A DNA stretch of 64,000 nt, taken from NCBI GenBank assembly GCA_026066175.1, contig GCA_026066175.1_4721.1; one strand, written 5' to 3'. The translations under genes were made by a program, and so were the position numbers. The stretch is from a phage. The notes under the pieces were generated by a model. The model worked only from the letters and a program-made list of their open reading frames with translations, was not told where the DNA came from and did not search any database. This document shows, in pieces, positions 1 through 51,011 of this stretch. The first letter of the stretch is position 1. Every line of letters starts with the position of its first letter.

Positions 1-31
1 TCGCTTCGTCGAGGTAGGGGAGGATAACACT

Positions 32-1786
32 TTATGCCGCTACATACCCAGGCCAACGTTCTCTTGGCCAGTTTGTTGCGCCCTGTCCAACGTTGTCCTT
101 ACCAGAAGTTACATTACTTACGTCCCAACCACTAAGATCCTGGTTAAATGCGGTGTTGTTGCGCATCATGAGGTCGATCCTACGTAACGATTGGGTATTC
201 CAGCCGGAAATGTCTTGGTTGAATGCCGCGTTGTAAGCAAACATGTTAACAACGTCTTGTAATTTTGAAGTGTTCCAGCCGCTTATATCGCTATTGAACT
301 GCATGTTCGAGAACATACTGCTAGCGTTGACAAGACTACCTGTTTTCCAGTTAACCAGCTTGTCCCCATCAAGTGCAACGCAGCTACTGAACATGTAACT
401 CATGTCGTTAACTTTGGATACATCCCATTTATCTAACCCGTTACCAACGAACTCGTAACAAGCTTGGAACATCCAGCTCATATCGGTAACCTGGCTCACA
501 TTCCATTTGCTAAAGTCGAGGTTGAGTTTTGCGCATCCGGAGAAGGTTTTATACATACTGGTGATACGACTAACATCCCATTCTTGAATGTTAGGATCAT
601 TAAGTATAGATAAGAATTTGAACAATTCGTCTAACGACGTCCATTTCTCTGGGATACGGTTTGGTACGGTACGGAGTGATGAAAGGTTACTGATTGACGG
701 AGAGCGGAACATACCGTTATCCCAATTTACGATTTCTGTAATGTTGGACCCACGGATCGTTTGGCGTCCGTTACCATTATACACAGACCCTGTTGCAGTT
801 ATTGTATATTCGTTTGTATCAGCATACGTATATTCAGCCTGTGTAGGCCACTCACCTATTACATCCCTATTCCCGTCGCCCCAATCAATGGAAATATCTA
901 TCCAGCCATCAAGATCTAGGGTAACGGTCCCGCCATTGGTCTTCAGGACGTATTTACCTGCATTGTCGGTATAATAACAAACAATCATCGCACCGTACAG
1001 GTTACCAATTTGCCAATCATCCTTTTGAGTTACCGCGATATGTGCTGTGCCACGTTGTAGGAAAAGAACCGTACGGTTCTCGTCAGTCTGTAATGTGGTT
1101 AATGCTTGAGCCTTATCATCGTCGGTAATTTCACCAGCTTCCACTAAAGCACTTAACATTCTTTCGAAGTAATCGATGGGTAATTGGCGTCCTACAGACA
1201 TATCAACTGATGGAACAGCGAGATCATCCAATGCGGCGGCAGTTGCAAGCACTAATGATCCATTGGTGGTGTCTGTTTCTTGGAGGTAATGCAGTCCCGT
1301 AATCTGGTACGCTTGAATGATTGTAATCAGATCCAGCGTATCGTTAATGACCTGTACTTGTAAATGTCCAGACCAAACATAGCTGCTTTCAGCAATCGGT
1401 AATTCGACCGACTGAATACCCGATGTTTCAAAACTGATCTTCTTATTAAGATCGGCTTCCAGGAAATCAACCGCGAGGTCGAAATTTATACCGTACTTTT
1501 CAGCGATGGAATCTATGATGTTCCTGAAAGCAACATCGGTACTTACGATGAATCGTAAAGGGATTCCTGTGAACGCATTAGCAATATCTCGACGAACATA
1601 CGTAAGTGATTGTTCGAAGAAATAGGGACTGTTATCTCCAGGTTTGATGGTTACCTGACACATTTCAGGATGTTCAACTGGGATGAACGATTCAAATTTA
1701 ACATCGGATTCCTTCAACGAAAGCATGTTCTTCCGGTTTACCAGCGCCAGAAGATCGGCTTTCCATCCAGGATAAACAGTAGACAT
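32..1786 (-). CDS. Fibre / receptor-binding-like protein with C-terminal DUF285-type repeats
   Basis: C-terminal tandem repeats of the form FNQDISGWNTS / WDVSKVNDMSYMF typical of DUF285 repeats; N-terminal ~150 aa paralogous to the N-termini of 45949-47403 and 5434-6300; start moved to MSTVYPGW (GGAGTG 5 nt upstream). Confidence 0.55.
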   Translation of the reverse strand: MSTVYPGWKADLLALVNRKNMLSLKESDVKFESFIPVEHPEMCQVTIKPGDNSPYFFEQSLTYVRRDIANAFTGIPLRFIVSTDVAFRNIIDSIAEKYGINFDLAVDFLEADLNKKISFETSGIQSVELPIAESSYVWSGHLQVQVINDTLDLITIIQAYQITGLHYLQETDTTNGSLVLATAAALDDLAVPSVDMSVGRQLPIDYFERMLSALVEAGEITDDDKAQALTTLQTDENRTVLFLQRGTAHIAVTQKDDWQIGNLYGAMIVCYYTDNAGKYVLKTNGGTVTLDLDGWIDISIDWGDGNRDVIGEWPTQAEYTYADTNEYTITATGSVYNGNGRQTIRGSNITEIVNWDNGMFRSPSISNLSSLRTVPNRIPEKWTSLDELFKFLSILNDPNIQEWDVSRITSMYKTFSGCAKLNLDFSKWNVSQVTDMSWMFQACYEFVGNGLDKWDVSKVNDMSYMFSSCVALDGDKLVNWKTGSLVNASSMFSNMQFNSDISGWNTSKLQDVVNMFAYNAAFNQDISGWNTQSLRRIDLMMRNNTAFNQDLSGWDVSNVTSGKDNVGQGATNWPRERWPGYVAA

Positions 1787-1824
1787 AAGCACTCCAATCA
1801 TGGGGCGGTAACCGCCCCCATCAG

Positions 1825-4800
1825 TTAAATTGTCGGTTTCACGTCGCGTAATAGGGCAATATAATAGCCTAATCCTCGGAGGATCTCCCCACTCCAGAAA
1901 CCAAAATACATTCCGTCTCTGCCGAGATTAGCACTATCTGGTGCAGGACTCCACCCACCATTCATTGCGTCATCAACGGTGTAATGATTGATGTAGTTTT
2001 CAGCGATCTCGTTATAAACGTTAACAGCAACAGGATAGCCTTTATCGTTGGGATGTCCGTACAACATCGCTAACGACGCACCCGCTAGCCATAATCCTGC
2101 CATGTGACCAGTAAAGTCATTCGGGATAAACGCAGGCGGTTTCTCCATTGGAAAATCCGTTGGTGATTGATAAGCATTTTCCTGCTGGAACGTATATAAG
2201 AAATCGATCCAATGACTGATGTAATGGGTTAACTTCTCAGGGACAGTTAATTTACGATCGATCAATCCCGCGTAAAGCCGTACCGCTGAAAAGAAAGCCC
2301 GCGGCTGATAACCAGACCATGCTGTTTGATCGCCGAAGTGGTACATCGTAAAATCATTGACCTTTGATCCGCTTGGCGCATCCCAACGATCCCACACGTA
2401 CGCACTCGCACCCGGCCCTAAAACACCGAACTTCTGATAGTACCATTGCTGTGAGTCATACCAGAAATCCACAACATTCTGAATCATGAGGTCACGACGT
2501 TCAGCCGAAACGTCCATATCCAGGAAGACCCACGGATGCTGGTAACCCGGATAAGGCTGACCGCGCCAGCTGTCGAAAGTCGGTGCGTTAGGGATATAGT
2601 TGTTAGAAAACGGAATAATACCTGGGGTATAAGGTAGTGGATCAAGACGTTGGTTAACGATCGTGCAGTCACCAACACGTAATGTTCCCTCCGCTTCAAA
2701 GGTTGCTTTTAATGTAAACAACATGGTATATCCGTCATCCGTGGCGTAAGTTGATGGCGGATTGTTGATAGCGTAGAGCTTAAATACCCCTTCAGCGATA
2801 TCGCTATCATCTGGCAAGAACAGAATTTCAGTTGAGCCATCACCCCACACAGGTGCAGAAGGTTTAGGGTCAGTATCAGCATGGTTCGGTTGATACCCTG
2901 AGAGCGTCCATCCAGTAGCCGAAAGCGTCAATGTATTTCTTGCTGTGGTGGCCGGTAGCATCTGCCACCATCGCCAACCATTTGCATCTTCTACACGAAC
3001 GTTGTAGTCAATCGACGCGAAATAACTGACCTGCCTTACGATCTGTTTTGCCGTTGGATTGAATTCAAATTGCCCGCCTGCCGCAGTAAGCTGCGCTTTT
3101 AAGAACAGTCCGTCACAGGAATCTTCAACAGCGTCGCTGAACTCCGTGGTGATTGCCACGTCATCCTTCCAACCGACTTTATCCGCCGATATCAATACAG
3201 AACCTGTAACAGCATCACCGGTTGGCGTTGAAGCTTCATCAACCGCATCAGCAGGAATCAACGCGCCTATTTTGAAATCCCATTCTTTCGGTTCAACGCT
3301 GGAAGGTAATACCAGCTTGTACGTTTTGGCTTTCGCTTCGGTTTTGTCCAAAGAAAGCGATAGTGAGATCTCAACCGGAATTGCAACGCCCGCTACATCT
3401 TTACCTCCGCAGGTTACACGAAGAATTGAATCGCGATTGACGCGGAACGGAATGGCCTGCTGTTCAAGGTAAATCTGTGCCGAAGATGCTTGAATCACGA
3501 TCCAACCGTCAACATCACGTGTGATCGTGAACGGTGCTTTCGATGGATAGGTATACGTGTAAGCGATACCGTCGGTGTCGTAACGATCGGTTCCTTTTAC
3601 CTGGCGGAAGAACTTGTCATTCGCATCAATGCGGGTATATTCCTCAATCGTAAACAAAGATGCCTTATACGCTTTCTGATAGCGCTCCTGCTGCGTTAAA
3701 CGGTATAAGGTGTAGGCTGCTTCACAAAACCACTGTTCAGCGTCTGATGCGTTTCCCATGTAGTCTCTGGTGACCGGTACCTGGATTGGTCGGTTATGCT
3801 GACACTCATTCGTTTTAATGAGATATCCACCATATTCAACAGGTACACGGGGTGCCCATGCAACCAAATAAGAACCGGTAACGGATTTATCTTTGAGTAC
3901 GATAGTCCCTACCTCGTCATCCGCACACGCCTCAAGATCTTCACCGTCCGCTGTTACGTAACGTTTTGTTCGCAACGCCAATTTCTCAATGGGGAATACA
4001 GTACCTTTTGTATTCCAGTCAATCGTCCCATTTTCATTCGTCTTGAACACATCCGCATTTAGATTTTGCCATCCAAGCTTACCCTCATAGACCTGAACAA
4101 CAAGATCCATGTATTCCCCGAACGTTGGTGAACCGTGAGGGATCTTACCGATTCCGTTGGTAAACACAACCGCGGTATCATGGAAACCACCATGTGTTGG
4201 GTAATCGTCTTTCGCAAGCGGGTAATGAGCCAACACCGGCTGTTTCCCATTAACAATCCAGTTTGCTATCCAACGTGTTGGGGTATCCGGTGGTTCAAGT
4301 CCTGCATAGAACGCTTTTACGTACGCGTCGAACGATGATTCCGCTAACGTAAGAAAATGGGCTTTAAGCTGGGTATCGTCGGTCGTATGACTGAAAATGC
4401 TTGCACCCAGGATCAACAACGATTGTCCTTCCGTTGTCGCGTCGCCATCCGGTTGTGCTTCCTGACGCGTTGCTGCGATAAAGTGACGGTTATTCACCAA
4501 CACACCGCTTTCATTCAAGACGTAATGATCGGTTTCAGGATCGGTAAACGTTCCTGTATTTCGCGTTAAGAAGCGAGCGTGGCCGTAACCAACGAAATTC
4601 ACCGGAGACGCTGTGATCATCCATTTACCGATAAGTTGTGCGACGTCCTTATAACGTTCCGACGCCGCGATCTGTTTTACGTACCAGTCTTGTCGATTGA
4701 ACGTCCAAAGCAGGAAGTAATACGTCTTATTGATCTCCATTACCGGAAACGTGGGCGTCAACGGTTCCAACGTTAAATAGTTACTCCAGTCAATCTGACC

Positions 4801-5421
4801 ACCAACAACCGACGGGGTGATTTCAAGCAGTTGGCACCATTCGTAACGTTTCGGTTTCGCATCGTAGGTAACTGGCAATGACTGTTTATACGTTCCGACA
4901 CGGTTCAGGTTGTACTTCTTCCTGGCCGATCCTAAATCAACGTAAATGCTAGAACTCGAACTCGCTCCGTATGTACCTAAACCACCCAACGTTGAACGGT
5001 ACAATGAAATAAACAACGTATCTTCCCAGTAGGGATTATCCTCGGTAGGTTCTAACGCAATCTGAGCGGATATCGAGTTCCATGTACCGAGTTGATACGT
5101 TGCGTCGAGAGATTCATCCGTGAAGTACGACTCTGGTAAGCTGAGTTGATACCTTTCGTTAATTAATGCTAACGCGGCACGACCCGTAATATCTTCATTA
5201 CCAGTTTCTTTCTTTACGATCGCGCCGAATGGAAACAACGTTGCAAATGAACGTTTTGGTTTATTTACGGTTACCGTTCCTGTGTAGCTTCCTGTTCCCG
5301 TGAGTTGTTGGCCATCAACTGTTGCGGTAACGTTGATAGTCGCATCTGGAACGTTCGTTTTGTTGAGCGTGTTTAGTTGCTCGATCAATTCGTGTTTATC
5401 GTCGGGTAGAAATGTTGCCAT
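1825..5421 (-). CDS. Large (1198 aa) putative virion structural protein, tail fibre/tailspike-like
   Basis: Very long ORF lying between two fibre-domain paralogs; Trp/Tyr/Gly-rich C-terminal region; no catalytic motif recognised. Confidence 0.35.
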   Translation of the reverse strand: MATFLPDDKHELIEQLNTLNKTNVPDATINVTATVDGQQLTGTGSYTGTVTVNKPKRSFATLFPFGAIVKKETGNEDITGRAALALINERYQLSLPESYFTDESLDATYQLGTWNSISAQIALEPTEDNPYWEDTLFISLYRSTLGGLGTYGASSSSSIYVDLGSARKKYNLNRVGTYKQSLPVTYDAKPKRYEWCQLLEITPSVVGGQIDWSNYLTLEPLTPTFPVMEINKTYYFLLWTFNRQDWYVKQIAASERYKDVAQLIGKWMITASPVNFVGYGHARFLTRNTGTFTDPETDHYVLNESGVLVNNRHFIAATRQEAQPDGDATTEGQSLLILGASIFSHTTDDTQLKAHFLTLAESSFDAYVKAFYAGLEPPDTPTRWIANWIVNGKQPVLAHYPLAKDDYPTHGGFHDTAVVFTNGIGKIPHGSPTFGEYMDLVVQVYEGKLGWQNLNADVFKTNENGTIDWNTKGTVFPIEKLALRTKRYVTADGEDLEACADDEVGTIVLKDKSVTGSYLVAWAPRVPVEYGGYLIKTNECQHNRPIQVPVTRDYMGNASDAEQWFCEAAYTLYRLTQQERYQKAYKASLFTIEEYTRIDANDKFFRQVKGTDRYDTDGIAYTYTYPSKAPFTITRDVDGWIVIQASSAQIYLEQQAIPFRVNRDSILRVTCGGKDVAGVAIPVEISLSLSLDKTEAKAKTYKLVLPSSVEPKEWDFKIGALIPADAVDEASTPTGDAVTGSVLISADKVGWKDDVAITTEFSDAVEDSCDGLFLKAQLTAAGGQFEFNPTAKQIVRQVSYFASIDYNVRVEDANGWRWWQMLPATTARNTLTLSATGWTLSGYQPNHADTDPKPSAPVWGDGSTEILFLPDDSDIAEGVFKLYAINNPPSTYATDDGYTMLFTLKATFEAEGTLRVGDCTIVNQRLDPLPYTPGIIPFSNNYIPNAPTFDSWRGQPYPGYQHPWVFLDMDVSAERRDLMIQNVVDFWYDSQQWYYQKFGVLGPGASAYVWDRWDAPSGSKVNDFTMYHFGDQTAWSGYQPRAFFSAVRLYAGLIDRKLTVPEKLTHYISHWIDFLYTFQQENAYQSPTDFPMEKPPAFIPNDFTGHMAGLWLAGASLAMLYGHPNDKGYPVAVNVYNEIAENYINHYTVDDAMNGGWSPAPDSANLGRDGMYFGFWSGEILRGLGYYIALLRDVKPTI

Positions 5422-5433
5422 TTATACACCCCT

Positions 5434-6300
5434 TTAATCGTAACTAAAATAAAGCTGGCTGCTAATTCCGCTATCTGGATGCGGTTTTAACACGAGTACG
5501 GATTCACCAAACGATGGTTTTACGGGTGCTGAGGGACCGCTCGTGATACCGTTATAAACGACGGTAGCGTTCGTGACAAGTTCCCACGCAAGGGTATAAT
5601 CCATAGACGACAATGCCGTTGCTAAACAGTAAGCTGCACGTCCTGTCGGTGATGTTCCAGCCGCGAGCCGACGTATCGCACCTTGTATAGGCACATCAAG
5701 TAATATCCCGTAGGTACTTAACGCGTGAATACCGGATTGCGCTTGATCTTCAGGGTAGTACGATGTTAACGGTGTTTTCACCATAAACAACTCGGTGAGG
5801 TTATTGCTCTGTGCTTTCTTCGCAACGAATTGGAAAGTCCCATACCACGATTCTGAGGCGTTGGCACGAACAGCAATTGAAACCGTCTTCTCTTGGGTTT
5901 CGAATACGATCGATTGGGTTAACGTATCCTGATCGAATATTGCTAAATCAATCACTAATCCGTATTTTTGAAACAGCTGGCTTAAACAATCCGCGACGGT
6001 GGTTGCGTTAGCGACGATAACATAAGGTTGATGATGAATGAACAGTTTACTGATATCGCGTCGTTGGAGATAAATGGAGACAGGATCGTCGGAATAATAC
6101 CGTGATTGTGGCGCGGGATTAATGGACAAGCGTATACGTCCAGAGTTACCGTACCAGTCAGGCGTTATCGTGATATCCGATAAGGTTAGCGGTTGGTGTA
6201 TATCTTGGTTTAATCGAGAGAGTACATCCTCTTGCCATGTTCGTTCTGGGTACATTTTTTGACCTCGTAACTTATAAATATAACGGAGGACTGAATTCAT
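5434..6300 (-). CDS. Protein carrying the fibre N-terminal-like domain only
   Basis: Segment ITITPDWYGNSGRIRLSINP...YLQRRDISKLF...LFQKYGLVIDLAIFD aligns with TIKPGDNSPYFFEQSLTYVRRDIANAF...IAEKYGINFDLAVDF of 32-1786. Confidence 0.45.
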   Translation of the reverse strand: MNSVLRYIYKLRGQKMYPERTWQEDVLSRLNQDIHQPLTLSDITITPDWYGNSGRIRLSINPAPQSRYYSDDPVSIYLQRRDISKLFIHHQPYVIVANATTVADCLSQLFQKYGLVIDLAIFDQDTLTQSIVFETQEKTVSIAVRANASESWYGTFQFVAKKAQSNNLTELFMVKTPLTSYYPEDQAQSGIHALSTYGILLDVPIQGAIRRLAAGTSPTGRAAYCLATALSSMDYTLAWELVTNATVVYNGITSGPSAPVKPSFGESVLVLKPHPDSGISSQLYFSYD

Positions 6301-43566: not shown

Positions 43567-43613
43567 CGTACGTACCTCTTTGACTGTATTAATAAATCGT
43601 GTTTACTCACGTA

Positions 43614-43645
43614 AGTAATATAGCCGTGAAAGGATTTGTATTGGC
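43614..43645 (-). promoter_or_regulatory. Promoter-like motif, copy 2
   Basis: GCCAATACAAATCCTTTCACGGCTATATTACT on the minus strand, ~48 nt upstream of start 43566. Confidence 0.45.
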
Positions 43646-43709
43646 ACGTTCGACGTTCATCGTATTTTATGGATTGTCGAATGACGTCATTTTAAGGGAC
43701 ATCCCCGGC

Positions 43710-43745
43710 CTCCTCCCCAGGAAAGGTGTGGGGAGGAGTTTTTAC
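43710..43745 (+). terminator. Plus-oriented terminator-like hairpin with T5 tail, ~30 nt before the SNF2 helicase start
   Basis: CTCCTCCCC / GGGGAGGAG followed by TTTTTAC. Confidence 0.5.
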
Positions 43746-43772
43746 CAGACTTTTATTAATTCGAGTGCGAGT

Positions 43773-45854
43773 ATGTTAGATAGAATAAATCGCCTAATGA
43801 ACCGGATAACGGTTAAAAATCAAAGCAACAATACCGTGCATGTTGGGGGTATCGATGCCTGGCGTCTTTCGGACGATATCCAGCGAATCTGGGGTACCTC
43901 TCGGTTTATGAAATATATGTTTCGTAACTTCTCTTCCAGCGGTCTTAGCATTCACAACTTCTATCTGCCTGATTTCGTTTATATTCTTGAAACGATCATT
44001 GATGCAAAGAACACCCGCAGCAACAAGCGGATGCTAAAACGCCTTGTTGAAGTCTTGTTAGAAGAAACCTGGCTGCAAAATACCACCATCGAACAGCCAG
44101 CCATTCTTGATAAAGCGCGCATGAAGAAAATGATGACGCTTTCTTTGTTCGATTATCAAGATGAGTATCTCGACATTTATAACCGCAACGTTCCGAAATA
44201 TCGATTAAAAGGCCATGTGTGTGCGATGGGTGCCGGGGCGGGTAAAACAATTACCGCGTTGGCGTTAAGCGCTGCCTTGGGTGTTGACGTCTTCGTGGCA
44301 TGCTGTCCTAAGAACACCATGCGTTCGGCATGGCAATCAGATTTACATAAAGCGCTTGTGGATCCTGCAACCGAATCCGCATTCTGGTCTGATGTGATGC
44401 CCCCAACCCAGTTACAGAAAAGCGATAAATATTACTTCCTGCATTACGAGCAGATGGGATTGTTAAACGAGATCATGCTCAAGCATAAACGCACAGCAAA
44501 ACGTGTGTTGATCGTTGTCGATGAAAGCCATAACTTCAACGATAAGAACAGTCAACGTTCTCAGCGTTTGGTTGATCTGGTACAGACGATGCGTCAAACC
44601 ATGAATGCGGACATACATGTCTTATTTATGTCGGGTACGCCTGTTAAACAGATGGGTTCTGAAATGATCCCATGTTTAGGTTGCATTGACCCGATGTTCC
44701 AAGGCCAGGTGGTTGATAGCTTCAAGTCGATTTACGGTTTAACCAGCAGTCGTGCTAATGATATCTTAAGGCATCGTCTTGGATTCATGATGCATGTCGT
44801 ACCCAAAGAAGCTTACCGTAAGACACGGCCTGAGGTTCAGGACGTATACGTGAAACTGCCTAACGGTAGTGATTACACCATCTCAAGTATCCGTGACGAT
44901 ATGGCGGTGTTTGTGCGTGACCGTGCAAAATACTACAAAGATAACTGGGGGCATTACCGGAAGATTTTCGATGATGCGCTGGATTTCTATCGTCGGACCA
45001 TACGGACGGAAGGTGAGCGTAAAGAACTGTCTCGTTATGAATCCATCGTCGCCCGCTTTCAGAAAGGTTACGATCCTGTCAGGGATAAAGAAGACGCCAT
45101 GTTCTGCAACGTGTTCGAGAAACGAGCGATCATGCCGATTCTTCCTCCCGATTTACGGATTGCGTTCAAAGACGCCAAAAGCGTCATCAAGTACGTCGGA
45201 TTGAAGATTCAAGGGGAAGCCTTGGCAAGGGTTCTTGGCGCAGCGCGCATTCAATGCCACGTTGATATGGTCGAGTATATCGATTTTGAAGGGTATATCA
45301 ACAATGCTGAAGCCAAAGTGCTGATCTTCACGTCATACGTTCAGGTAGTTGAACGCGTTGATAACCTGCTTCGCGATGCGGGCTTCTTACCAGAACCGAT
45401 CTACGGGAAGACCAACAAGAACATTAACCAGATCCTCGCGCGATTACGCGATGATCCTGACAGCGGTCCCGCTATCGCAACCTTTGATAGTTTAGCGGAA
45501 GGGGTTCCTATGTTAATGTGTAACGTCGGCCTTTTCTTAAATAACCCCTGGCGTTCCTCCGATGAGATCCAAGCCATCAGTCGTCTCGACCGTGTTGGTC
45601 AAACCCAACCTGTTCGTATCTATCGTTTCATGCTGGATACTGGCAGCGAAGGTAACGTTTCAACACGAAGCCAAGAGATCATGGAGTTAAGTCGTCAGCT
45701 GGTTGAAGAAATCACAGGTGTTAAATACAATGTGAATAAACAAGCCGACGTTAACCTACAAGAAACGCTGGCTATGGAAGGGTACGATAGATACTTGACG
45801 ATTAATACCCCTGGGTTTGAAATCAAACCGCGTTCCACGTTCTTAGAATGGTAA
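43773..45854 (+). CDS. SNF2-family (SF2) helicase/ATPase
   Basis: Motif I CAMGAGAGKT, motif II VVDESHNF, motif III MSGTPVKQ; start placed at ATG 43773 (MLDRINRL) because the track ORF begins with GTG at 43599 and would translate through a terminator-like hairpin. Confidence 0.7.
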   Translation: MLDRINRLMNRITVKNQSNNTVHVGGIDAWRLSDDIQRIWGTSRFMKYMFRNFSSSGLSIHNFYLPDFVYILETIIDAKNTRSNKRMLKRLVEVLLEETWLQNTTIEQPAILDKARMKKMMTLSLFDYQDEYLDIYNRNVPKYRLKGHVCAMGAGAGKTITALALSAALGVDVFVACCPKNTMRSAWQSDLHKALVDPATESAFWSDVMPPTQLQKSDKYYFLHYEQMGLLNEIMLKHKRTAKRVLIVVDESHNFNDKNSQRSQRLVDLVQTMRQTMNADIHVLFMSGTPVKQMGSEMIPCLGCIDPMFQGQVVDSFKSIYGLTSSRANDILRHRLGFMMHVVPKEAYRKTRPEVQDVYVKLPNGSDYTISSIRDDMAVFVRDRAKYYKDNWGHYRKIFDDALDFYRRTIRTEGERKELSRYESIVARFQKGYDPVRDKEDAMFCNVFEKRAIMPILPPDLRIAFKDAKSVIKYVGLKIQGEALARVLGAARIQCHVDMVEYIDFEGYINNAEAKVLIFTSYVQVVERVDNLLRDAGFLPEPIYGKTNKNINQILARLRDDPDSGPAIATFDSLAEGVPMLMCNVGLFLNNPWRSSDEIQAISRLDRVGQTQPVRIYRFMLDTGSEGNVSTRSQEIMELSRQLVEEITGVKYNVNKQADVNLQETLAMEGYDRYLTINTPGFEIKPRSTFLEW

Positions 45855-45861
45855 TTAAGAA

Positions 45862-45890
45862 GCTCTGCCCGAAGGCAGAGCTTTATGCCG
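45862..45890 (+). terminator. Terminator after the SNF2 helicase gene
   Basis: GCTCTGCC CGAA GGCAGAGC followed by TTTATGCCGG. Confidence 0.6.
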
Positions 45891-45948: not shown

Positions 45949-47403
45949 ATGAAAATCAAACAAAGCTGGAAAGACGAATTACTTGCATTAGTTAACAGCA
46001 AAAACAGTTTACAACTGACATTAGACGACGTAAAGTTTGAATTAACCGAACCGGTAAGCGAAGTGCCCGGAACGGTCGTTGTTACAATCAAACCGAACGA
46101 TAATAGTCGCTACTTTAACGAGCAGTCTCTGACCTACGTCCGTCGAGACATTGCTAAAAACTTCACCGGGATTCCGTTACGGGTTATCGTTAAGCAAGAT
46201 ACCGCTGTAAGGGATATCATCAATACGATTGCTGAACGTTACGGATTGGTATTTGACACAACCGTCGACTTCCTCGAATCAGAGCTGAATAAACAAATTA
46301 CTTTCGCAGACACCGGTATTAAAGACGTTACTGTTCCGGTTGCAAACACGTCTTATGTTTGGGCTGGTAATCTTCAGTTCAATATTGCGAACGATACGTT
46401 AAGCTTGATTACTATCATCAAGAAAACCAATCTTACGAATCTGGTTTATCTGGATGGTGTTGAAGCTGACACATCGGGGTCGTTACTGTTAGCCACCACA
46501 GCACTTGTTAACGATAGCGTAAATAAGCCGATGGTTGAAAACGAAGATATCGTCGATGAATTCTACAACGTTCTTAATGCTCTAGCCAAATATGGTGACA
46601 TAACTGGCGATGAATTAAATGCCGCCTTACATGCGTACGATGAAGCAGAAAACAGGAATAAAACCACGGTAATAACTCTTGGTGATATCCAGTGTGTTGC
46701 AACAGAAAAAGACGATTGGGAAATTGGACGTTTACGCGGTCAGATGGTTCTCGCGCTCAAATCCGACAAACAACCTGAGCGCGAGAACACGTTAAGGTTG
46801 TTTACGAATGGCGGTGACGTCTCACTAACGTTAAACACAATGAAAGATATCAGTATCGATTGGGGTGATGGGAATAAAGTAACGTTGGATGCTGAAGAAA
46901 GATACGCGCACCACACATACGCCGACAATAACCAGTACCAAATCGAAATTGTGTCTCGTACGGACCCAGATGTGCTGCGACCAAATTATATTTCTGGGAG
47001 TGAGATAACCGAAGTAATTCACTGGGCTACTACTTCAACAATAGCTCTGAATTTTGTTGGATGCGATAATTTAGCGACTGTTCCAGATGAGATCCCAACT
47101 TCGTGGACAACGTTGGACAGCATGTTTGAAAGTTGTACGAATTTGAATGATCCGTCTATCTCTAACTGGAATACAAGTAACATCACATCAATGAATGGTA
47201 TGTTCGGCGGATGCACTAAATTTAACCAACCTTTAGCTGCCTGGGATGTCAGCTCAGTAACTGACATTGGTGGTATGTTTGTCGGATGTGACAGTTTTAA
47301 CCAAGATTTAAGTGGGTGGCGATTACCGTCAGGAGTAAACCACACCAATTACGATGATGGTGCTTTCTCGTGGCAGACGGAACATAAACCGACATTCCAG
47401 TAA
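45949..47403 (+). CDS. Fibre / receptor-binding-like protein with C-terminal DUF285-type repeats (paralog of 32-1786)
   Basis: N-terminal ~150 aa aligns closely with 32-1786; C-terminal ITSMNGMFGGCTKFNQPLAAWDVSSVTDIGGMFVGCDSFNQDLSGW repeats. Confidence 0.6.
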   Translation: MKIKQSWKDELLALVNSKNSLQLTLDDVKFELTEPVSEVPGTVVVTIKPNDNSRYFNEQSLTYVRRDIAKNFTGIPLRVIVKQDTAVRDIINTIAERYGLVFDTTVDFLESELNKQITFADTGIKDVTVPVANTSYVWAGNLQFNIANDTLSLITIIKKTNLTNLVYLDGVEADTSGSLLLATTALVNDSVNKPMVENEDIVDEFYNVLNALAKYGDITGDELNAALHAYDEAENRNKTTVITLGDIQCVATEKDDWEIGRLRGQMVLALKSDKQPERENTLRLFTNGGDVSLTLNTMKDISIDWGDGNKVTLDAEERYAHHTYADNNQYQIEIVSRTDPDVLRPNYISGSEITEVIHWATTSTIALNFVGCDNLATVPDEIPTSWTTLDSMFESCTNLNDPSISNWNTSNITSMNGMFGGCTKFNQPLAAWDVSSVTDIGGMFVGCDSFNQDLSGWRLPSGVNHTNYDDGAFSWQTEHKPTFQ

Positions 47404-47422
47404 AAAAAAATAGTTAGCATAA

Positions 47423-47456
47423 CTTCCTCCCTACCCATAACGGGCGGGGAGGAAGG
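47423..47456. terminator. Probable bidirectional terminator between convergent genes
   Basis: CTTCCTCCC / GGGAGGAAG; GTTTATG on the plus strand and a T9 run on the minus strand. Confidence 0.55.
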
Positions 47457-47472
47457 TTTATGTGGTTATGAC

Positions 47473-47811
47473 TTAGAACCAGAGTTCTTTCATGAAGTAG
47501 GCTTCCATATCGTAAATAAGCCACTCATCTGGGATTTCTAAAGGATCGTCTTCGGTTAAGGTGAGCATGTGCAGGGCGAACGCACGCTTAATATCTTCCA
47601 ACAGCTTATCATCACCGTAACCTTCGGGTAGTTTACGGTCAACCAGCTGGGTTTGTTTATAGACATCGCGGAACGCTTCAGGATTATGTTTATCCATCGG
47701 GAATTGTTCAGCAGCCTGAACCATCGAAAGCGTCCAGCTTACAACATTGTAACGCTCACCGTTAATTTCACTGAACTTATCATCGATTAAACAGATTTGT
47801 TGTATATTCAT
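47473..47811 (-). CDS. Hypothetical protein
   Basis: 112-aa ORF. Confidence 0.4.
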   Translation of the reverse strand: MNIQQICLIDDKFSEINGERYNVVSWTLSMVQAAEQFPMDKHNPEAFRDVYKQTQLVDRKLPEGYGDDKLLEDIKRAFALHMLTLTEDDPLEIPDEWLIYDMEAYFMKELWF

Positions 47812-48749: not shown

Positions 48750-51011
48750 TTACAATTCGAAATCTTCATCGATAACGCGTTGGGTTAGCACCTTGTCGCT
48801 GAAGAACTCCACCTTACGTTGATGGTATTTCCGATGTGCTTCAATCGACGTACACACCAGATACCAGAACGTGGGTGTCATACCCTCGAACTTCCCTTTC
48901 AGCTGACGTAGTCGACCTAACACCTGAATGTTACCAGTTCTCGACCCCATCGCTAACGTCATGAACGTCATCACCAAGTCAGGAAGATCGATTCCTGTAC
49001 CAGCCGATTTTACCGTTGTCACACTGATATCATTATCCAGTAACACCATGAAATCTTCTTCAGCGGTATAAGGACCTATCTCCAACTCAGGGATACGTTC
49101 ACTTAAGTAATGCGATAACGACTTGCACATATCAACGGTTGCACAATACACCAACATCTTCATGCCTTCCTGATATTGGTTCATGAAACCTTTGATAATA
49201 ACCGTATAGATAAAGTTGAAATAGGCGAGTTTGAGTTGCTTATTCTTCATGATAGACTGTTCGAATACCGTGTGAGAATAAGAACCTCCAAAGCCTTTGT
49301 ATCGGACTTTATCCGTACTGCGTAGTCGATACGTCACCGCATTTACCGCGATGTATTTCTTGTATTCACATTTCGCATAACGTGCTTCTTTCGGATACAT
49401 CAAATACAGCATCCGCTCGATGAACGGATCGTCAGACACCGCCGTTGCCGACAGATAAATGATTTCCGGAATATTCGCGTAACACTTCACTTTGAACAAG
49501 AAATGCAGAGCTTCGTGACATTCATCGTGGATTAACAATCCAATGCCTGTTTTCTCCCAGAACTCGACTGGATGGAAAACATAAGGTGCGACACAGTTGT
49601 TCTTTTCATAATCGGTTATATAACGCTGAAACATGTTCAGTGAGAATAACGCAATTTTGAAATCCAACTCACCTTGTTCTACCAACGTCTGAAATTCCAA
49701 CATGCTGTAACGAGGAATGTCGGGATGCGGTGGGTCAGACTGGGCTGTACCACGTATCTCGATAACATCACCTGGTTCCATACCGAAGAAACTTAGCAGT
49801 GAGCTACGCCATCCAGGCATGTACCTCGGTGACAGAATGATGCCCGTCCGTACACCACGTCGGAAGGTGATCTCCTGCGACATTGCGGTGTTGTGCGTGA
49901 CGATATGGTCTTTAATAACATAAAGGCTTTCGTCGTTGTCCACCGTGATGCAACGTGCCTTCGCTTTCACCGTCGGCACGATGCCGCCAATCGCTAAACC
50001 AGGAAGCGTGTTAACGGGAAGATCATCTGGAATCTCAATGCCGTCAGGAATAAGCTTAAGCAAATCGGAATGGTAAATTAATGTCTCCATCGTGTAACTA
50101 TTGATGGGGCATTTATACGCGATTCCCCCTAACCGATAAGCCAACTCCCAGACCTCGGTCATTATCTGCGAATCGGTGGTTCTGACCGCAAGGTGAGCCC
50201 ACCCTTCTTCAACACGCAGCACGCAACGATCTTTGATGAGTTCTCTGAAACGATCAAGACCCACGAGTTCTTTCGGTTCGTAAAGTCGGATTCTTACCGG
50301 ACGAGATCGTGACGATCTGTCATTAAGACGTTCCATGATTTCACTCGTGCTGAGCACCTTGTCAGGATCCGTGCATTGCCAGAGATGATCACCACACGCT
50401 TCAACCATTCGTCCATCTTCAAAGAAGACAGCGTAAAGCTGAATATCGTCATGATCAAAGATAGCAGTTACGTTCGTCGGTAAACCATCCGCGCCGATGA
50501 CCTCATCACCCACCTGGAGCTCACCAATCGGCTTCCAACCGCTTGGAACCTTAACGGGTGTATGGAGAGCCAATGCTTTCCCAGACCCCGTGCCTGCGGT
50601 GTTTAGGCTCATTCTGAAAGGGGTATCCTTACCCCCATCCATGTACTCCAACCATTCTTGCTGATCTTCACGCCACGGAAACTTCCAGTTCTTCACAAAC
50701 TCCACTTCCTTACCTGGAACCGGATCGTGGTAAACGATTTCCAACCACTCCTTTCGAATTCCTCGAGAAAAGATAAAATCCAAAAACGACTTCAGCTGTT
50801 CACGAAGTAAGTAGACCTCGCTATAATCGCTTCTTGCTGCGGCGTAGGTGTTGATGGTATCGGTGACCATTCTCCGTGTACGAGGGTCGCGTCGTTTCCG
50901 TAGATGCAAACAACGGTCTCGAAGGTAATGGCCAATCAAATGGGCAAATCGAAGTCCGTATCCGCTCAGCTTCATGCCATGCGAGAAGACGTCGATACGA
51001 GCTAACTTCAT
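48750..51011 (-). CDS. SF2 (DExH) helicase carrying an intein-like insertion in motif I
   Basis: Host motifs NTAGTGSGK | T (AGTGSGKT after excision), LLIHDECHEA, YLSATA, SAGTGIDLPDLV; about 229 aa inserted between K and T. Confidence 0.65.
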   Translation of the reverse strand: MKLARIDVFSHGMKLSGYGLRFAHLIGHYLRDRCLHLRKRRDPRTRRMVTDTINTYAAARSDYSEVYLLREQLKSFLDFIFSRGIRKEWLEIVYHDPVPGKEVEFVKNWKFPWREDQQEWLEYMDGGKDTPFRMSLNTAGTGSGKALALHTPVKVPSGWKPIGELQVGDEVIGADGLPTNVTAIFDHDDIQLYAVFFEDGRMVEACGDHLWQCTDPDKVLSTSEIMERLNDRSSRSRPVRIRLYEPKELVGLDRFRELIKDRCVLRVEEGWAHLAVRTTDSQIMTEVWELAYRLGGIAYKCPINSYTMETLIYHSDLLKLIPDGIEIPDDLPVNTLPGLAIGGIVPTVKAKARCITVDNDESLYVIKDHIVTHNTAMSQEITFRRGVRTGIILSPRYMPGWRSSLLSFFGMEPGDVIEIRGTAQSDPPHPDIPRYSMLEFQTLVEQGELDFKIALFSLNMFQRYITDYEKNNCVAPYVFHPVEFWEKTGIGLLIHDECHEALHFLFKVKCYANIPEIIYLSATAVSDDPFIERMLYLMYPKEARYAKCEYKKYIAVNAVTYRLRSTDKVRYKGFGGSYSHTVFEQSIMKNKQLKLAYFNFIYTVIIKGFMNQYQEGMKMLVYCATVDMCKSLSHYLSERIPELEIGPYTAEEDFMVLLDNDISVTTVKSAGTGIDLPDLVMTFMTLAMGSRTGNIQVLGRLRQLKGKFEGMTPTFWYLVCTSIEAHRKYHQRKVEFFSDKVLTQRVIDEDFEL
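49890..50576 (-). mobile_element. Intein-like element inside helicase motif I (protein residues ~146-374)
   Basis: Begins ALALHTPVKVPSGWKPIGELQVGDEV and ends CITVDNDESLYVIKDHIVTHN followed by Thr; removing it restores AGTGSGKT. Confidence 0.55.

Follow-up and report, generated by a model that had tools for sequence, protein, structure and literature searches.

The chimallivirus-specific protein family DUF7941 has ten members in the Escherichia phage vB_EcoM_Goslar (gp22, gp23, gp31, gp33, gp34, gp86, gp91, gp92, gp93 and gp161), and all ten were found in purified virions (bioRxiv 10.64898/2026.04.21.720040). In this study, four genes designated A, B, C and T were analysed in a stretch of phage DNA of 64,000 nucleotides (nt) from NCBI GenBank assembly GCA_026066175.1 (contig GCA_026066175.1_4721.1), the whole of which is called the window. 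Genes A (32-1786), T (1825-5421) and C (5434-6255) lie next to each other on the minus strand, and gene B (45949-47403) is located on the plus strand. The window is a relative of Goslar, a nucleus-forming jumbo phage, with approximately 80-87% nt identity and conserved gene order, and this synteny identifies it as chimallivirus DNA. Little is understood of how nucleus-forming jumbo phages recognise their hosts; because they evade many defences, they are candidates for therapy.

Purified gp22 of Goslar was found to form filaments, which was shown for gp22 only, and AlphaFold models arrange the Goslar DUF7941 proteins head to tail, with the linker and C-domain of one protomer placed on the N-domain of the next; the linker that follows the N-domain is disordered. 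On this basis a "DUF7941 fibre cloud" was proposed, which would be attached to the peripheral baseplate and in which the carbohydrate-binding, glycoside-hydrolase and leucine-rich repeat (LRR) domains of gp86, gp92 and gp161 serve in host recognition. The number of copies per virion was approximately 110 for gp161, 5 for gp92, 5 for gp93 and 1 for gp91 (all from bioRxiv 10.64898/2026.04.21.720040, the copy numbers from its supplementary table). In phage phiKZ, the DUF7941 protein gp127 forms the end of the gp139 band in each star lobe of the outer baseplate (Nat Commun 2026, PMC13250141). The core of the finding described below, a shared anchor carrying alternative tips, is a rediscovery of what is already published for Goslar. 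The paralogue A and the details of recombination and tip evolution appear to be new, and no tandem-array rearrangements, RRDIA crossovers or LRR hypervariability were found in the part of the text of bioRxiv 10.64898/2026.04.21.720040 that was searched; they add detail and no new principle.

The DUF7941 N-domain and the tips attached to it

The original prediction, made from the letters of the window, was that A, B and C share an N-terminal attachment domain that carries alternative distal tips. The N-terminal similarity proved to be real. Pairwise protein alignment gave 46% identity over 474 amino acids (aa) for A and B (E = 4e-122), 33% over 147 aa for B and C (E = 8e-16) and 25% over 195 aa for A and C (E = 5e-8), and the motif string that had been quoted was present in the A-B alignment. 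The scores of A, B and C for Pfam DUF7941 (PF25613, gathering score 27 bits) were 77.1, 90.3 and 45.4 bits, respectively, and all three proteins matched PHROGs 1037/2935, "virion structural protein". When an N-domain profile was compared to the six-frame translation of the window, exactly three strong copies were found, and these were A, B and C. Gene A encodes 584 aa from an ATG at 1786 with GGAG located 6 nt upstream; the longest open reading frame (ORF) begins at 1801, and the gene callers in two relatives, L005 and L007, also gave 584 aa, in agreement with the start chosen earlier. Gene C encodes 273 aa (longest ORF from 6300) and is a full-length DUF7941 protein composed of N-domain, linker and C-domain, the Pfam match spanning model positions 54-274 of 276. 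It is the orthologue of Goslar gp93 (61% identity), and its orthologues of 273 aa in relatives are 95-98% identical.

Gene T (1198 aa), located between A and C, is the orthologue of Goslar gp92, a "tail protein", and matched PHROG 2871 tail protein (E = 1e-298). Its DUF7941 score of 23.7 bits (E = 3.9e-5) was below the cutoff, hhalign gave a probability of 46% in a register that differed from the Pfam alignment, and the AlphaFold2 (AF2) model of its N-terminus had a predicted local distance difference test score (pLDDT) of 38.7. The Goslar study counts gp92 as DUF7941 with carbohydrate-binding and glycoside hydrolase domains (bioRxiv 10.64898/2026.04.21.720040). T is probably a fourth DUF7941 member, possibly with a divergent N-terminus, so that the three genes counted in the original prediction were the ones above threshold and the window probably holds four. 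In a 20.8-kb Logan contig, a stand-alone protein of 194 aa (P0015) was 76% identical to the N-terminal approximately 195 residues of T; its DUF7941 match was weak (E = 4e-4), and it may be another truncation variant of the array.

The AF2 model of A (mean pLDDT 75.7) was composed of five regions. Codons 1-149 (1340-1786, minus strand) form a globular DUF7941 N-domain, the putative anchor, with a pLDDT of 55-78. Within it, codons 65-76 (TYVRRDIANAFTGIP; 1559-1594, minus strand) hold a conserved motif that is also the crossover zone of the chimeras between A and gp91 described below, as seen in the alignment and in a blastn boundary at 1560. A low-confidence linker (codons 150-199; 1190-1339, minus strand; pLDDT < 50) is followed by codons 200-354 (725-1189, minus strand), in which a helical/beta region (200-275) precedes a beta-sandwich (approximately 276-354) with a WGDGN motif. 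Codons 355-584 (35-724, minus strand) were confidently modelled (pLDDT 81-96) as an LRR solenoid in which a unit of 24-26 aa is repeated approximately 7 times and one face is hypervariable. Structure prediction, which had been suggested as a check on the repeat domain, and the Pfam DUF285 match (152 bits, E = 9e-45) both identified this tip as a DUF285/BspA LRR domain. In B (484 aa), the DUF7941 N-domain takes up codons 1-185 (45949-46503, plus strand), and codons 186-484 (46504-47403, plus strand) contain a middle region, a beta-sandwich and a short DUF285 LRR tip (E = 2.6e-25) with approximately 3 repeats as counted from the sequence. Thus, the earlier description of A and B as similar at the N-terminus with different tips was right for the shared N-domain, but the two proteins are alike over their whole length and carry the same type of tip with approximately 7 versus 3 repeats. 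Tips of this DUF285 type gave tblastn matches in 116 phage records and also matches in BFVD.

The N-domain was related to phiKZ gp127 by two approaches. A profile of seven N-domains matched the gp127 chain in PDB 9xqd (E = 0.004, residues 16-167), and when the model of A was compared to the PDB by Foldseek, 9xqd (gp127) was the sole significant match (E = 4.8e-4, probability 1.0, 148 columns). Single-sequence searches of the PDB with A and with T gave no match. Word-indexed searches for homologues were sparse (3, 13 and 2 matches), and an exhaustive HMMER search of the family gave 365 cluster representatives of 54-1537 aa at E <= 0.001. DUF7941 was N-terminal in nearly all of the best 150 of these 365 representatives. 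Among 58 family members of at least 380 aa that were scanned with Pfam, 57 matched DUF7941; the tips were DUF285 in 11, and LRR_5, TIM-barrel_NCTSP and the GP38 tail-fibre adhesin domain in one member each, and the majority of tips had no Pfam match. These data support the view of the family as one N-terminal module that carries many alternative payloads. The predicted anchoring domain with alternative distal domains was borne out by the location of gp127, by this range of tips and by the boundary at residue 185 between B and Goslar gp161 described below.

Taken together, it is likely that A, B and C are paralogues within the DUF7941 family of virion proteins, composed of an anchor and a payload, and T is probably another. 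The N-domain of approximately 150 aa would act as a module for anchoring and self-association, placing the protein on the outer peripheral baseplate or in filaments that grow from there. The segment behind it would be the payload, which in A and B consists of a flexible linker, a small beta-sandwich and a BspA/DUF285 LRR solenoid whose most likely ligand would be a structure of the host surface. A and B would then be two differently tipped adhesins shown together, with no switch. The array may change in four ways: by deletion of whole genes, by exchange of cassettes where the N-domain ends (residue ~185), by recombination of neighbouring paralogues inside the YVRRDIA..F.GIP motif, and by amino acid replacement focused on one surface stripe of the LRR. 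In the best-supported reading, the array is a hotspot for the modular evolution of host recognition.

Compared to described systems, B, C and T are orthologous to Goslar gp161, gp93 and gp92 at the same sites, the N-module is common to both phages, and gp161 also has an LRR payload, but Goslar is without A, has a deletion scar instead, and the tip of gp161 is approximately 40% identical to that of B. The N-domain of phiKZ gp127, the sole DUF7941 member that has been located experimentally, is homologous by profile and fold; however, gp127 (with gp126 in PDB 9xqd) has 290 aa, is DUF7941-only like C, has no LRR tip and shows approximately 22% identity. The phiKZ fibre paralogues gp131-gp135 are alike in that similar N-terminal segments dock at the periphery of the baseplate while the C-terminal domains differ. 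In contrast to A and B, they have an unrelated N-terminal fold, hetero-hexamers with six-helix bundles and a beta-propeller tip, and they were not found to be related in sequence. With their tips, A and B fall into the BspA/DUF285 class of "26-residue repeat" surface proteins, which occurs in jumbo phages, giant viruses and Mycoplasma; most of these proteins are without the DUF7941 anchor, DUF7941-DUF285 being a recurrent sub-architecture. Modular receptor-binding proteins, in which an exchangeable C-terminus follows a conserved N-terminal anchor, include the fibres of T-even phages, P2, Mu and P1 and the branched tailspikes of Klebsiella phages. A and B share with them the conserved anchor, a sharp recombination boundary, a divergent tip and several tips per virion, but the folds are different, the mode of attachment is probably different (self-associating filaments versus a fixed socket), and there is no switching of the invertase type here.

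Rearrangements of the tandem array

Two relatives contain the array in an extended form. L007 (run SRR14289618) was 97.5% identical to the window over 12 kb, and L005 is a contig of 180 kb (AAHLWB010000010.1) in the assembly NCBI GCA_007261085.1 of Salmonella enterica serovar Panama. Such a near-complete jumbo-phage relative within a Salmonella assembly suggests that the phage infects Salmonella, is in a carrier state there or is a contaminant. In both relatives the gene order was a C-like gene (273 aa), a T-like gene (1198 aa), A (584 aa), a gp91-like gene (175 aa, DUF7941) and a long tail fibre gene with Phage_tail_fib, Phage_fiber_2 and Peptidase_S74 domains. From this order, a fifth DUF7941 member, gp91-like, is probably located just beyond the left edge of the window. 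The fibres downstream of the array were 1009-1324 aa in length. In Goslar, fibre maturation involves a separate Caudo_TAP assembly protein; L004, another form of the locus, L005 and L007 have an intramolecular Peptidase_S74 chaperone and no Tfa gene.

A was without a counterpart in Goslar, and an exact look-up of A in public contigs gave no record. DNA homology to Goslar ended at 1790, just upstream of the start codon of A. The Goslar spacer between gp92 and gp91 was unusually long (205 nt) and was composed of three pieces: 38 nt that precede the ATG of A, approximately 12 nt corresponding to the last codons of A (GTAGTAGCATAA versus GTAGCAGCATAA), and the spacer between A and gp91. This points to a clean indel at A, read most simply as a deletion of A in Goslar. 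The deletion is further strengthened because L009, whose flanks are 97-98% identical to Goslar, keeps approximately the first 76 codons of A. The possibility that A is a substitute for the gp91-gp90-gp89 fibre module of Goslar was rejected, since a gp91 remnant follows A in L003 and since A is followed by gp91 and then by the fibre in L005 and L007.

Chimeras between A and its neighbour gp91 were found as well. P0002 and P0003 are mosaic proteins of 176 aa from public assemblies. Their identity over residues 1 to ~77 was 80-96% with A compared to 12-48% with Goslar gp91; over residues 78-176 it was 4-40% with A and mostly 76-100% with gp91, declining to 40-60% at the very C-terminal end. The A-like and gp91-like DNA matches of the mosaics overlapped by 36 nt, corresponding to codons 65-76 (TYVRRDIAKAFLGIP). 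Conservation in the family is highest in this stretch, where R66, D67 and F72 were invariant in the family alignment. In the AF2 model, the N-domain has two halves, and the junction coincided with the loop that separates them (residues 70-75, low confidence). The crossover in L004 occurred directly after the RRDI codons and that in L009 approximately 25 nt later, and the gp91-type parents differed between the two chimeras. Because both the crossover points and the parents are different, A and the adjacent gp91 were joined by deletion on at least two separate occasions. Both events seen were in frame and kept the fibre-proximal half.

It is possible, though we hold this only tentatively, that the DUF7941 N-domain has two halves that can be exchanged, with the invariant RRDIA loop as their joint. 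That the first ~70 residues set the docking place or partner and the second half the cargo is a similarly doubtful proposal, and so is the conjecture that this cargo may be the fused tip of the protein itself or, for gp91, a separately encoded tail fibre. If the two-half arrangement were true, recombinants at RRDIA would re-wire which host-binding device sits where on the virion.

Other members of the array were also affected. C and T were both absent entirely from L004. L003 and L009, which come from different samples, had a common deletion from codon ~81 of C to codon 743 of T (L003 8336-9960 and L009 359-1983; public samples ERR5917301 and SRR29027569). The left end of this deletion was directly after the RRDINKLF motif of the DUF7941 domain, and gp93 was fused to gp92 out of frame, leaving ORFs of 85 aa and 456 aa. 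In L003 most of the A repeats were missing and the gp91 remnant was joined to the end of the fibre gene, and in L009 the fibre gene was lost and the assembly gene kept. The locus forms a natural variant series, in which A, T, C and the fibre are present or missing, different tips occur behind an unchanged anchor, halves of the N-domain are combined in chimeras and one face of the LRR is hypervariable. Such a series could serve to examine the proposed DUF7941 "fibre cloud" and to locate the determinants of host range.

Evolution of the tips and the role of A and B

B is the orthologue of Goslar gp161 at the same genomic site. Up to residue 185, where the two proteins are near-identical, 37 synonymous and 7 nonsynonymous differing codons were found, and beyond residue 185 the identity fell to approximately 40%. 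The nt identity was 85-96%, dropped to 33-66% at ~46500 and was 86-95% directly past the stop codon. Since identity drops at the end of the N-domain and recovers past the stop codon, the tip of B relative to gp161 is a cassette exchanged at the domain boundary. The suggestion that B was a later acquisition was not supported: B is a conserved gene at the same site in Goslar, A is the gene that was gained or lost between relatives, and if the term applies to anything, it is to A and not to B.

The tip of A changed in a different pattern. Compared to L007, A differed at 8 codons in codons 1-275 and, in codons 276-400, at 25 codons synonymously and at 30 nonsynonymously; the latter segment looks like an imported patch. 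Gene conversion from B as the source of this patch was rejected, as the patch was just 23-46% identical to B. In codons 401-584 there were 15 nonsynonymous changes and 1 synonymous change, compared to 15 and 67, respectively, in T between the same two genomes (Fisher p = 1.1e-8). All 14 of the 14 changes within repeats were at positions 10-18 of the 24-26-residue repeat, the non-consensus part of M-x-x-M-F-x-x-C-x-x-F, and by repeat geometry these positions form one stripe on the surface of the solenoid. Because the nonsynonymous excess was not significant against the neutral expectation (p = 0.17), these changes are described as relaxed or diversifying selection on a defined LRR face, with positive selection not proven. 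Mutagenesis by a diversity-generating retroelement was excluded because no template repeat was found, the tip sequence being single in both the window and L007; moreover, the spectrum of changes was not adenine-specific.

The arrangement of A and B might also be explained by a classical pair of tail fibres, in which the two proteins would be alternative trimeric fibres in one baseplate socket, present in few fixed copies and possibly alternating. The common N-domain with divergent tips, the location of A in a tail-fibre neighbourhood and the defined baseplate position of phiKZ gp127, one per star lobe, are in agreement with such an arrangement. We consider it unlikely, however. The Pfam scan found no marks of a classical long tail fibre (P2 gpH / P1 S type) in A, B and C, and A and B are without fibre, collar and chaperone domains, whereas these marks are held by separate fibre genes of L004, L005, L007 and Goslar (gp90/gp89); the nearby true fibre with its Phage_tail_fib, Phage_fiber_2 and Peptidase_S74 domains is two genes downstream of A in relatives. 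The LRR solenoid also differs from the trimeric fibre fold. Proteomics had been named as a test of virion location, and for the orthologue it was positive, gp161 being present in purified Goslar virions; because its ~110 copies per virion are unlike a simple six-fold baseplate fibre, a classical fibre does not fit. An invertible-segment switch of the Mu Gin / P1 Cin type between A and B was rejected, as no usable inverted repeats or switch elements were found, the genes are 44 kb apart, and their DNA shared one high-scoring segment pair of 213 nt at 68% with a longest exact match of 16 nt. Neither the "fibre module" in its classical sense nor the "switchable" specificity of the original prediction was supported.

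BspA-type LRRs are general protein-protein interaction modules. A and B could for that reason be structural decorations or spacers, or virion cargo directed at host proteins once infection has begun, and not receptor binders at all. This appears improbable to us, given that a relative of the N-domain sits on the exterior of the baseplate, that the same slot in the family holds a Gp38 adhesin or glycosidase-like barrels, that the genes cluster with the tail fibre, and that the swap of the tip cassette and the surface-limited replacements suit the evolution of host range. A could also be a copy of B that is decaying and serves no separate function, since it is missing in Goslar and truncated in L003, since just its first ~76 codons remain in L004 and L009, and since the nonsynonymous excess in its tip is compatible with relaxed constraint. 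That is very unlikely: the 584-codon ORF was intact in three genomes with no frameshift, codons 1-275 were nearly identical to L007, the replacements were confined to variable repeat positions while the consensus positions were kept, and the tip is predicted to fold. A is taken to be an old, maintained paralogue because it is merely 46% identical to B.

The reading of A and B as differently tipped adhesins of a DUF7941 virion family is preferred to these alternatives, and several points weigh against it too. As Goslar is without A, we infer its packaging and its docking from the paralogues, and a role of DUF7941-LRR proteins in adsorption or host range, including the binding of a host receptor by the LRR, is likewise a presumed one. 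The fibre-cloud model comes from a preprint and is largely founded on AlphaFold multimers and on filaments of gp22, another paralogue (bioRxiv 10.64898/2026.04.21.720040). The PHROG category for the family is "head and packaging". The N-domain of A was modelled with moderate confidence, and its template modelling (TM) score to gp127 was 0.40. Finally, L003 carries shortened C/T, A and gp91/fibre together, and the shortened genes may be dispensable or the L003 contig may be a defective variant.

Intergenic hairpins and the neighbouring helicase genes

B had been described as a single plus-strand gene bracketed by terminators. Strong hairpins were indeed found on both sides, but the SNF2-like helicase gene upstream of B (43599-45854) is also on the plus strand. 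A terminator-like hairpin followed by UUUAU is located between this helicase and B (45859-45884, plus strand; -19 kcal/mol, z = -4.7), and the Goslar annotation has a terminator at the equivalent site. The second hairpin (47417-47463; -27.7 kcal/mol, z = -5.1) lies between the convergent genes B (plus strand) and 47473-47811 (minus strand) and is likely a bidirectional terminator. Both were missed by a terminator scan and were found by reading and folding the sequence. Because B has strong hairpins on both sides, it is plausible that it forms a separate transcription unit.

Between T and A, a weak GC-rich hairpin (1802-1818, minus strand; -14.4 kcal/mol, z = -1.4) was found, and its sequence is kept in Goslar. 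A very stable hairpin follows A (window 1-31; L007 16226-16272; -32 kcal/mol, z = -4.6) and is kept in the Goslar gp92-gp91 spacer despite the missing A.

Elsewhere in the window, a superfamily 2 (SF2) helicase gene (48750-51011, minus strand) was identified as the orthologue of Goslar gp164, with 753 aa compared to 524 aa in Goslar. A Pfam scan of the whole 753-aa helicase gave no match at E <= 1e-3. The difference is an insertion of 229 aa at ~49890-50576 inside the Walker A motif (GTGSGK | ALALHTPVKVPSGW...HIVTHN | T), with flanks that are 98-99% identical to Goslar. The inserted segment resembles an intein whose position 1 is Ala, whose last two residues are His-Asn and whose +1 residue is Thr.

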